Shown here in pieces: positions 29,893-30,835 of a stretch of 64,000 nt of DNA. Source of the stretch: Bacteroidota bacterium. GTDB lineage: Bacteria > Bacteroidota > Ignavibacteria > UBA10030. Made by a program: the position numbers and the translations under genes. The stretch spans positions 2,761-66,760 of the forward strand of contig JBBDYD010000194.1 in NCBI GenBank assembly GCA_040901865.1, written 5' to 3'. Numbering within the stretch: the first letter of the stretch is position 1; the number at the start of each line of letters is the position of its first letter. A model generated the notes under the pieces. The model saw only the letters and a list, made by a program, of their open reading frames with translations, made no database searches and was not told the DNA's origin.

Positions 29893-29978
29893 GGAGAGAA
29901 GAGGATTCCCCGTTTCACAAATAAATCGAAGAAGTAGTCCCTTATCGGATCAACCTCTGGGCGGGAGAACCCACGGTA
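29893..29978 (-). pseudogene. Decayed tRNA-Ser T-arm fragment with T-loop hairpin insertion (copy A0)
   Basis: ggagagaagaggattc (29893-29908) resembles the tRNA 3' acceptor/T-stem ggagagggtgggattc. A 58-nt insert follows (29909-29966), ending tccctt...ggga and homologous to the A' insert. Then comes gaacccacggta (29967-29978), identical to the tRNA. Confidence 0.55.
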
Positions 29979-30021
29979 ACTCATAGACTTTAGCCACTGA
30001 AAATGCTTAAAACTCTTTCAG

Positions 30022-30108
30022 CGGAGAGGGTGGGATTCGAACCCACGGTACCCTTACGGGCACACACGCTTTCCAGGCGTGGCAGTTCAACCACTCCTGC
30101 ACCTCTCC
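30022..30108 (-). tRNA. tRNA-Ser (anticodon GGA), type II with long variable arm
   Basis: Hand-folded from the minus-strand sequence. Acceptor GGAGAGG/CCTCTCC; D stem CAG/CTG with loop GAGTGGTTGAA; anticodon stem CACGC/GCGTG with loop CTGGAAA; long variable arm; T arm GTGGG-TTCGAAT-CCCAC; discriminator G. CCA is not encoded. Confidence 0.93.
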
Positions 30109-30365
30109 GGGTTGATGATGCCTTTGGCCCGAAGCCAAAGGTTGCCAGCTAATGATTTGAAGAATCTTTCTCTTGCCGTTGCTTCTCTCTTGGTGTTGAA
30201 CGCCTCCCAATAGTGGAGGACGTAGGGACTGTGGCCTTTTGTGTAGTGTCCTCGCCCAGCATTATGTGCCGCCAGCCTTGCATGAAGGTCAGCGCAATGC
30301 CCGTAATAATACGTTCCGTCCCGTAAACTGCGAAGAATATAGGTGTAAAACATCCCCCCAAACAT
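30087..30365 (-). CDS. Small GIY-YIG nuclease family protein (UPF0213/YhbQ-like)
   Basis: 92 aa; FYTYILRSLRDGTYYYGHCADLHARLAAHNAG...TKGHSPYVLHYWEAFNTKREATARERFFKS fits the GIY-(10-11)-YYG...R...E...N pattern. The last 7 codons and the TGA stop (30087-30089) lie inside the tRNA-Ser gene. Confidence 0.85.
   Translation of the reverse strand: MFGGMFYTYILRSLRDGTYYYGHCADLHARLAAHNAGRGHYTKGHSPYVLHYWEAFNTKREATARERFFKSLAGNLWLRAKGIINPERCRSG
30089..30272. repeat. 184-bp direct repeat, copy 1 (tRNA 5' part + GIY-YIG 3' half)
   Basis: Matches 30565-30748 at a constant offset of 476 bp with 4 mismatches. Confidence 0.9.
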
Positions 30366-30384
30366 TATTGATGCGCAAGCACTT

Positions 30385-30584
30385 GAGGGTGGGATTCTCC
30401 CTTTCAGAGATTATTCAGAGAAGGGATCCCTTCCTCGTGAATCCCCTTGAACGGGAGAACCCACGGTACCCTTACGGGCACACACGCTTTCCAGGCGTGG
30501 CAGTTCCCCCGAGCGCTGGAATTACCATTGAGGGGTCCCTTCATTGGTCCATCACAGAAAGGGAAACCACTCCTGCACCTCTCC
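30385..30584 (-). pseudogene. tRNA-Ser(GGA) paralog interrupted by hairpin insertions in T-loop and D-loop (copy A')
   Basis: All non-insert bases are identical to 30026-30108. A 59-nt insert sits at 30398-30456, between C and G of the T-loop TTC|GAA. An insert of about 58 nt sits at 30507-30564 in the D-loop (GGTT|GAAC). The last 4 nt of the 3' acceptor strand are replaced (cactt instead of cggag), so only 4 acceptor pairs remain. Confidence 0.8.
30387..30432. repeat. 46-bp exact direct repeat, copy 1 (T-stem + first T-loop hairpin)
   Basis: gggtgggattctccctttcagagattattcagagaagggatccctt is identical to 35700-35745. Confidence 0.9.
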
Positions 30585-30748
30585 GGGTTGATGATGCCTT
30601 TGGCCCGAAGCCAAAGGTTGCCAGCTAATGATTTGAAGAATCTTTCTCTTGCCGTTGCTTCTCTCTTGGTGTCGAACGCCTCCCAATAGTGGAGGACGTA
30701 GGGACTATGGCCTTTTGTATAGCGTCCTCGCCCAGCATTATGTGCCGC
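30585..30748 (-). pseudogene. Duplicated 3' fragment of the GIY-YIG gene
   Basis: 30565-30748 repeats 30089-30272 with 4 mismatches in 184 bp. It covers the last ~55 codons (AAHNAGRG..GIINPERCRS). It has no N-terminal half and no start codon. Confidence 0.8.
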
Positions 30749-30835
30749 TGGCAGTTTCCCTGAGCGCTGGAATTACCATTGTGGGGTCTCTTCATTGGTC
30801 CATCACAGAAAGGGAAACCACTCCTGAACCTCTGC
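30749..30835 (-). pseudogene. tRNA-Ser 5' (acceptor/D-arm) fragment with D-loop hairpin insertion (copy A'')
   Basis: tggcagtt, then a 59-nt insert (30757-30815; 4 mismatches to the A' D-loop insert), then aaccactcctgaacctctgc. It is fused directly to the GIY-YIG fragment at 30748/30749. Confidence 0.75.

Follow-up and report, generated by a model that had tools for sequence, protein, structure and literature searches.

Why should a single functional tRNA gene stand in a row with a small nuclease gene and several broken copies of itself? The question is raised by a 64,000 nucleotide (nt) stretch of DNA, referred to here as the window, from a Bacteroidota bacterium (Ignavibacteria, UBA10030; GCA_040901865.1, contig JBBDYD010000194.1 of a metagenome-assembled genome (MAG)). 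Between 29889 and 30835, on the minus strand, a GIY-YIG nuclease gene, a truncated second copy of it and three partial or interrupted copies of tRNA-Ser(GGA), here called A″, A′ and A0, are arrayed around one intact tRNA gene. All of these elements had been listed in an earlier, sequence-only reading of the DNA, and all were recovered at the same positions or a few bases away. The explanation that we favour, allowing it about an even chance of being correct, is that a selfish cassette living on tRNA genes has built up into an array at this locus, in which T-loop cleavage resembling that of the phage nuclease SegB, amplification through repair, and a hairpin module that breaks the cut site would together account for the layout.

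With regard to relatives of the nuclease, one genome per species was scanned with the nuclease alignment, yielding 80 loci from Ignavibacteria, other Bacteroidota, Balneolaceae, Calditrichia and Kryptoniota. At each of them (80/80) the nuclease gene lies beside a co-oriented tRNA gene or a tRNA fragment interrupted in its T-loop, and the tie to tRNA genes that had been suspected from the window thus holds at every locus recovered by the scan. An intact tRNA on the same strand occurs within 130 nt at 60/80 loci, upstream of the gene in 45 cases and downstream in 16 (one locus displays both), with none on the opposite strand; 21 of these 60 tRNAs are positioned 0-10 nt upstream of the nuclease gene. 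The remaining 20 loci, many of which are at contig ends, all harbour a T-loop-interrupted tRNA fragment beside the gene. The tRNAs involved are Ser-GGA, Ser-CGA, Ser-TGA, Ser-GCT, Glu-CTC, Arg-CCG and Leu-TAG. The presence of this arrangement at all 80 related loci argues for a widespread selfish cassette.

Two arrangements recur amongst these loci. In arrangement I, an intact tRNA is followed after 0-48 nt by the nuclease gene and, ~10 nt further on, by a T-arm/acceptor fragment that reads T-stem 5′ strand, TTC, insert, GAATCC, T-stem 3′ strand and acceptor 3′ strand. In arrangement II, a promoter precedes a full tRNA copy with a T-loop insert, which is followed by the nuclease gene and then by the intact tRNA. 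The window and its relative L002 belong to type II, and the syntenic locus L004 is of type I with two tandem units. In every partial copy the break falls between T-loop positions 56 and 57. The tandem repetition noted in the window extends to relatives, with two units in L004, three in L012 and six in L029. Those of L029 (~3400-3840) are 77-nt solo T-arm units that contain the module and are unaccompanied by a nuclease gene, and similar units are located downstream of tRNA-Glu in L017 and L014. Such solo T-arm arrays behave like non-autonomous derivatives. No integrase (tyrosine or serine recombinase) or transposase is present in the open reading frame (ORF) lists or gene calls at the locus and in the inspected relatives, in keeping with what had been remarked of the window.

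Within the window, the array comprises the following features, given in minus-strand order:

30816-30835, minus strand: A″, 5′ acceptor strand and start of the D-arm of a tRNA-Ser(GGA) copy (GCAGAGGTTCAGGAGTGGTT), 18/20 identical to the tRNA 5′ end
30757-30815, minus strand: A″, D-loop insert, a two-hairpin module of 59 nt between GGTT and (G)AAC, 96 % identical to the D-loop insert of A′
30749-30756, minus strand: A″, D-stem 3′ strand and start of the anticodon stem (AACTGCCA), ending at the deletion junction 30748/30749, with CTG microhomology between the tRNA and GIY codon 27/28
30585-30748, minus strand: truncated GIY-YIG copy, amino acids (aa) 28-80 plus a read-through tail, with 2 aa differences from the full copy
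30380-30584, minus strand: A′, whole tRNA-Ser(GGA) copy, with its 5′ part at 30565-30584
30506-30564, minus strand: A′, D-loop insert of 59 nt between GGTT and GAAC
30457-30505, minus strand: A′, anticodon, variable and T-stem part, 100 % identical to the intact tRNA
30397-30456, minus strand: A′, T-loop insert of 60 nt between GGTTC and GAATCC
30380-30396, minus strand: A′, T-stem 3′ strand and diverged acceptor strand (CCTCAAG instead of CCTCTCC)
30087-30365, minus strand: GIY-YIG nuclease ORF, with the conserved 80-aa core at 30114-30353 and its last codons inside the tRNA
30022-30108, minus strand: intact tRNA-Ser(GGA), its 5′ end overlapped by the GIY ORF and without an upstream spacer of its own
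29889-29977, minus strand: A0, solo T-arm fragment whose two-hairpin insert (29908-29966) is degenerate and whose 3′ acceptor strand has decayed

The intact tRNA-Ser(GGA) is the single one at the locus (30021/30022-30108 by ARAGORN and Rfam; 52.7 bits against a gathering score of 29) and, with no spacer of its own, must therefore be transcribed through the array. When aligned to it, A′ displays two clean insertions and is otherwise identical save for the 3′ acceptor strand. A″ is the D-arm fragment with an insert that had been described, but it does not end with the D-arm, reaching instead into the first bases of the anticodon stem. Its direct fusion to the truncated nuclease gene at 30748/30749 is real: the tRNA sequence ...AACTGCCA runs straight into GIY codon 28 (GCGGCACAT...) across the CTG microhomology. 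A0 is probably what remains of a unit that lay downstream of the tRNA; at the homologous position, L004 and L094 have intact units, and L090-L093 have nothing. The direct repeat claimed for the window was recovered as 30089-30272 and 30565-30748 (184 nt, 98 %, 4 mismatches), and is joined by a second (30498-30589 and 30749-30840; 92 nt, 92 %, 7 mismatches) and a third (30039-30088 and 30457-30506; 50 nt, 100 %).

Repeats such as these, on a MAG contig, raise the suspicion of misassembly, and the short-read contigs of relatives do break at the T-arm. The same anatomy is present, however, in dozens of independent assemblies, including the complete chromosomes OZ244932.1 and OY969888.1, and identical contig pairs derive from different samples (L002/L086 and L004/L005). 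In addition, the independent assembly L001 (Logan SRR27977660) matches window positions 25591-30046 at 100 % and ends in the T-arm of the intact tRNA, confirming this portion of the locus; A0 and the tRNA 3′ end cannot, therefore, have arisen as an artefact of a single assembly, whilst the part comprising A″, the truncated GIY gene and A′ is known from one assembly only. As an explanation of the array, misassembly seems to us highly improbable.

A BLAST search of the inserts against the window reveals a fourth decorated copy, B′, which lies outside the region originally delimited and upstream of tRNA-Ser(CGA):

35693-35902, minus strand: B′, decorated tRNA-Ser(CGA) copy with a diverged acceptor 3′ strand and no adjacent GIY gene
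35838-35882, minus strand: B′, D-loop insert
35804-35825, minus strand: B′, anticodon-loop insert of 22 nt, TCCCGAAGGGA+TGCCGTCGGCA
35710-35768, minus strand: B′, T-loop insert
35544-35631, minus strand: intact tRNA-Ser(CGA), 61 nt downstream of B′

B′ and A′ have in common a stretch of 46 nt at 100 % identity, spanning the second T-loop hairpin and the T-stem, despite lying 5.3 kb apart, as might be expected if the nuclease acted in trans or if the two loci underwent gene conversion. No remnant of a nuclease gene was detected at the B′ locus by tblastn.

The interrupted copies had been regarded as decayed tRNAs, and this description does not hold. Instead, they carry a stereotyped two-hairpin module, placed between TTC and GAA of the T-loop and often, in full-length copies, also at fixed points of the D-loop and the anticodon loop. 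In its minimal form the insert measures 22 nt, with the consensus TCCC-GAA-GGGA followed by CTCC-TTY-GGAG, and folds into two hairpins, each with a 4-bp stem and a 3-nt loop. Longer forms exist, with a first hairpin of 12-14 bp at Arg, Leu and some Ser loci, and in the lineage of the window both hairpins extend to ~30 nt. A metagenome pattern scan with the window-type T-loop insert recovered one contig only, identical to L002. D-loop modules reside between GGTT and GAA in L010, L049, L066, L003 and the window, and anticodon-loop modules between nt 35 and 36 in L010, L054, L057, L065, L069, L075, L087 and B′. In L075, the module in the anticodon loop (CTCCGAAGGAG TCCCTTTGGGA) matches the reverse complement of a common T-loop module exactly. 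A fourth position is seen in L057 (~2293, +327 from the GIY start), where a two-hairpin module is found between the variable arm and the T-stem, flanked by taccg and tgggtt. Furthermore, a 30-nt variant (TGCGCC-GGN-GGCGCA followed by TCCGCC-TTT-GGCGGA) is nearly identical in the D-loop of L003 (1300-1330) and the T-loop of L040 (~3413), which points to transfer of the module between loops.

Analysis of 35 distinct module sequences demonstrates that the two-hairpin fold pairs 98 % of cells, with compensatory changes in 8 pairs, a result equalled by 0/500 shuffles. A single 7-bp hairpin for the 22-nt module was rejected (85 % paired, almost no covariation), as was a duplex palindrome for the binding of a dimer, given that pairing within each half is conserved rather than symmetry between the halves. 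The pairing statistics therefore indicate selection on a single-stranded fold and not on a duplex palindrome. The module nonetheless remains near a 22-nt palindrome, with the two hairpin loops tending toward complementarity (60-80 % paired). A kink-turn or C/D-box reading was a poor fit to the long D-loop insert on inspection. Between the window and L087, 50/59 positions (85 %) of the D-loop insert and 47/60 (78 %) of the T-loop insert are identical, at a distance where synonymous sites of the nuclease are saturated; the inserts are therefore constrained rather than decaying.

These observations bear on the most ordinary of explanations, in which the array comprises leftovers, either att-site duplications from integrase islands or the products of neutral pseudogene decay after tandem duplication of the tRNA, with the nuclease as a passenger. 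Direct repeats of the tRNA 3′ end are indeed typical of integrated islands, and T-loops are said to be known crossover sites (a point attributed to Williams in 2002). Against this, no integrase is present at the locus or in the inspected relatives, the units are only ~330 nt long, and the module recurs across phyla with compensatory changes and is conserved above the level of synonymous sites. We attach very little probability to this explanation.

With regard to the nuclease, the ORF matches the Pfam GIY-YIG family (PF01541) with 51.6 bits, well above the curated cut-off of 22.6 (E = 1.2e-13), so that the identity initially assigned to it stands; the 92 aa then taken as its length do not, the native protein being 80 aa. 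Homologues are ~80 aa long and terminate in ...KGII. In the window the stop codon is replaced (ATCATCAACCCGGAGAGG as opposed to ATCATCTAATCGGAGAGG in L002), with both copies (30087-30113 and 30585-30589) displaying AAC where L002 has TAA. The 92-aa ORF exists because this stop codon was lost, and translation consequently proceeds 12 codons past the conserved core and into the tRNA. Overlong homologue ORFs likewise hold translated tRNA sequence, with or without inserts, and the public gene calls P0002-P0005, P0023 and P0026 overrun into a tRNA or decorated tRNA, giving proteins of 92-150 aa with spurious extensions.

The window protein retains all of the invariant family residues (Y5, Y16, Y17, G18, R26 and E62), amongst them the catalytic tyrosines, arginine and glutamate, and its predicted structure (AlphaFold) has a predicted local distance difference test (pLDDT) score of 92 with the secondary structure order E-E-H-E-H-H. 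A profile search of PDB sequences identifies 1zg2 (E = 9.6e-11), 1ywl (E = 6e-9) and Slx1 (E = 0.013), and fold comparison matches UPF0213 BH0048 and the Slx1 nuclease domain (template modelling (TM) score ~0.7), with I-TevI matched weakly (E = 0.6). The nuclease is thus a minimal single-domain GIY-YIG protein of the Slx1/UPF0213 lineage, and not of the I-TevI or UvrC lineages. Comparison with its closest relative, L087 (81 % aa identity), gives a nonsynonymous divergence (pN) of 0.10 and a synonymous divergence (pS) of 0.77, and the nuclease is therefore under strong purifying selection. No family match was returned by NCBIfam or PHROGs, no relatives were found in viral contigs, and exact-protein look-ups of the GIY ORF and of the neighbouring response regulator gave no match.

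Judged by sequence profile (E = 1e-10) as well as by fold, the closest known proteins are the UPF0213/Slx1-like group (BH0048 1zg2, EF2693 1ywl, YazA and YhbQ), all of which are minimal GIY-YIG proteins. Genes for UPF0213 proteins, in contrast, resemble single-copy housekeeping genes, with no reported link to tRNAs, repeats or arrays. One UPF0213-type gene, on a Sphingomonas plasmid (L088, NZ_CP155752.1, 1495-2543), overlaps the start of an RNA methyltransferase gene and is unlike the tRNA-linked clade. A housekeeping-like RNA-methyltransferase context was reportedly noted for the UPF0213 lineage in 2006.

A nuclease of this type, paired with a single-stranded fold, brings to mind the Ssn proteins, 71 % of whose genes are flanked by hairpin repeats (NTS/SRM; cd10448; PMC11893778). 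On an explanation of this kind, the module would be the single-stranded DNA (ssDNA) recognition element of the nuclease, cut a few bases upstream, and module-gene-module would constitute an element resembling an insertion sequence (IS), or a domesticated one, with a modulating role in recombination or transformation at tRNA loci; the loops of tRNA genes would merely be places where insertion is possible. The parallels are considerable. SsnA is a 94-aa single-domain GIY-YIG protein that binds its hairpin repeat as ssDNA only (PMC11893778), both families comprise single-domain proteins of ~80-94 aa, and in both the gene has short hairpin repeats at its flanks, much as in an IS. In the loci studied here, modules are located on one or both sides of the nuclease gene, often on both. 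Selection acts on a single-stranded fold in both systems, and what it keeps here is intra-strand pairing, not a duplex palindrome. The module, moreover, follows the nuclease clade from one tRNA to another, and the fold of the protein falls within the structure-specific Slx1 lineage.

Set against this, the SRM consensus HGTCWYN(0-2)YYVSBRHN(0-5)WNVSBRGN(0-2)RNCYNB is not enriched, with 3 matches in 418 kb compared to 1.6 in shuffles, and none in the window. A generic hairpin scan of the 64-kb window picked up only the anticodon-loop module of B′. The modules are seen solely in tRNA-derived sequence, inside the loops of tRNA genes, rather than being dispersed intergenically in hundreds of copies, and they consist of two tandem hairpins as opposed to one. 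The Ssn paper makes no mention of tRNA at all (PMC11893778), and no tRNA link is reported for Ssn. This comparison drew on published features (PMC11893778) and the SRM consensus, and the plasmid matches examined for SsnA were UPF0213-type genes only. An Ssn-type explanation is a strong rival, which we nevertheless judge unlikely as it stands; it is partly compatible with the selfish cassette, as the module could serve both as binding site and as site-breaker.

Selection on a single-stranded fold would equally be expected if the decorated copies acted at the level of RNA, as structured RNAs co-transcribed with the nuclease mRNA and serving as processing signals, stabilisers, or decoys/antitoxins. 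Processing would then free a near-leaderless nuclease mRNA, and the hairpins would block maturation into harmful tRNAs. Co-transcription is hard to avoid where all elements are co-oriented with spacers of 0-3 nt at many loci; the hairpins are at the apex of each cloverleaf loop with the cloverleaf preserved, the covariation fits a single-stranded fold, and the inserts are conserved. Many units are, however, T-arm fragments unable to form a tRNA-like body, and the full-length copies have broken acceptor stems. No Rfam match exists for them: in an Rfam 15 covariance scan of 29000-31500 only the intact tRNA scores, with A′ and A0 unmatched to E = 10. In the comparison of G:T with A:C asymmetry, which would distinguish an RNA from a DNA fold, informative pairs are too few to be decisive and G·U pairs are not enriched, so that nothing favours RNA over ssDNA. 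Such a role would also leave the tandem arrays and the switching of tRNA targets unaccounted for, and we consider it distinctly unlikely.

The selfish cassette that we favour draws on a different precedent. SegB of phage T6 is a free-standing GIY-YIG homing endonuclease from the tRNA gene clusters of T-even phages that cuts inside tRNA genes at RAWTSGAAC and, together with phage recombination proteins, drives recombination-dependent tandem amplification of tRNA+segB (PMC13096335). Its reverse complement, GTTCSAWTY, is the T-loop sequence, and the breakpoint in the tRNA copies described here is the centre of the motif. The motif is present in both intact tRNAs of the window (30034-30042 and 35557-35565), whereas in A′, A0 and B′ the module divides it at its very midpoint. 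In both systems a GIY-YIG gene is found amongst tRNA genes, with nuclease and tRNA amplified as tandem units. The cassette is not a SegB-family member, however. SegB is phage-borne, more than twice as long, equipped with a C-terminal DNA-binding domain and of the I-TevI lineage, whereas the present protein is chromosomal, 80 aa long and of the Slx1/UPF0213 type, with no PHROG match and no relatives in viral contigs. Moreover, SegB arrays are without hairpin modules or interrupted tRNA copies, and their amplification is transient, whilst the present arrays are fixed and ancient.

By analogy with SegB, the cassette would comprise the 80-aa nuclease gene, extra copies or fragments of the local tRNA, and the two-hairpin module. 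The nuclease gene, in the orientation of the tRNA and with little or no spacer, is probably co-transcribed with it. Its product would break tRNA-gene DNA at the T-loop sequence, and recombinational repair between the tRNA repeats would duplicate tRNA+nuclease units and shuffle which copy remains intact, thereby generating the tRNA-upstream and tRNA-downstream layouts, the tandem units and the solo fragments. The module, by splitting the cut site, would ensure that all copies but the one needed tRNA cease to be targets, and it would move with the nuclease gene when the cassette colonises another tRNA.

Several considerations weigh against such a scheme. The nuclease is a catalytic domain of 80 aa only, lacking the DNA-binding domain of SegB, which leaves specificity for the T-loop unaccounted for, and the activity of the family is itself a prediction. 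The functional tRNA, its T-loop intact, would go on being a target within the cell that houses the cassette. Merely to break the site, an insert would need neither to be a conserved hairpin pair nor to occur in D- and anticodon loops, the sequences of which differ from the SegB motif. The scheme also does not account for the flanking T-arm halves: whenever the target has changed, these invariably agree with the local tRNA. Finally, no pair of empty and filled sites from one species was found, the contigs of the NfeD relatives all ending at the tRNA T-arm.

A further reading, which we advance tentatively as a possibility, is that the 22-nt module and the 80-aa nuclease form a new minimal mobile pair, in which a structure-specific single-strand nuclease would recognise the folded cloverleaf of tRNA-gene DNA and open its loops, and microhomology-templated repair would copy the palindromic module into them. 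No homing element known so far would be smaller than this module, with tRNA loops as its dedicated target, and the nuclease gene would hitch-hike on the tRNA promoter, keeping the only functional tRNA inside its own transcription unit.

Whichever of these applies, differences in target and layout between relatives point to mobility of the cassettes. One nuclease clade, all members of which have the module with a long first hairpin, is found at Arg-CCG, Leu-TAG, Ser-GGA and Ser-GCT, and same-genome copies occupy different tRNAs in L010/L023, L017/L085 and L057/L079. That closely related nucleases sit at different tRNAs speaks for the sequence-only reading. Arrangements I and II are interleaved amongst close Glu-CTC relatives. 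Nor is the window locus static, as the layout proximal to nfeD differs between close relatives: L090-L093 have an intact tRNA and then a unique spacer, L004 and L094 an interrupted T-arm, and the window the degenerate A0. Two further proposals fared less well. That the cassette brings a fresh tRNA-Ser to replace the resident one finds no support, with copies always matching the local tRNA. Similarly, the grading of divergence between copies cannot safely be read as age. The tRNA-derived parts are homogenised with the functional tRNA (50 nt, 100 %), presumably being kept identical to it by gene conversion, and divergence therefore does not measure age.

The history of the window may nevertheless be reconstructed in outline. 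Its ancestor would have been similar to L002, with a T-loop-interrupted copy, the GIY gene and the intact tRNA. A D-loop module, common to L087, would then have been gained, followed by duplication of the unit formed by the copy and the GIY gene. The first unit would next have lost the region from the anticodon stem to GIY codon 27, leaving A″, truncated GIY, A′, GIY and tRNA, with A0 as the probable remnant of an older downstream unit.

Similarities to other known systems are more limited. IS200/IS605 and REP/RAYT elements also combine a small nuclease gene with short hairpin repeats that multiply without the gene, much as in the solo arrays of L029. Their HUH tyrosine transposases rejoin DNA, however, whilst GIY-YIG enzymes only hydrolyse it, and host repair would therefore have to do the joining. 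Archaeal tRNA introns (multiple, small and non-canonical) are likewise short structured inserts in D-, anticodon and T-loops, yet these are spliced and their tRNAs work. In contrast, the present copies have broken acceptor stems or are fragments, in a bacterial host that keeps an intact tRNA next to them.

Full-text literature searches turned up no account of small GIY-YIG genes on chromosomes that are associated with tRNA genes, nor of hairpin modules within the loops of bacterial tRNA genes. The finding is best filed as an extension of known kinds, namely free-standing GIY-YIG homing elements and nuclease-hairpin pairs. Should the selfish cassette prove correct, tRNA-targeted GIY-YIG homing, known from T-even phages, would reach bacterial chromosomes across a whole superphylum, an 80-residue catalytic domain without a DNA-binding domain would be able to sustain such an element, and the hairpin module would represent a built-in site-breaking device, sparing no more and no less than one working tRNA. 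Single-domain GIY-YIG proteins, a large class that is mostly uncharacterised, would also acquire a second concrete biology besides Ssn/NTS, and these proteins are candidate small nucleases with predicted structure- or sequence-specific single-strand activity. In practical terms, annotation pipelines over-call the nuclease ORFs into adjoining tRNA sequence, and the cassettes would account for a class of 'tRNA pseudogenes' as well as for contig breaks in metagenome assemblies.

As to the latter, short-read contigs from five independent samples (L001 and L090-L093) all end at the tRNA-Ser T-arm upstream of nfeD, and it is probable that contigs in metagenomes of the FCB group break systematically at these cassettes. 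Lastly, both decorated arrays of the window are located in divergent intergenic regions, facing a response-regulator gene (30895-31347, plus strand) and a Fur-family gene (36276-36671, plus strand), respectively, and they therefore occupy shared promoter regions.

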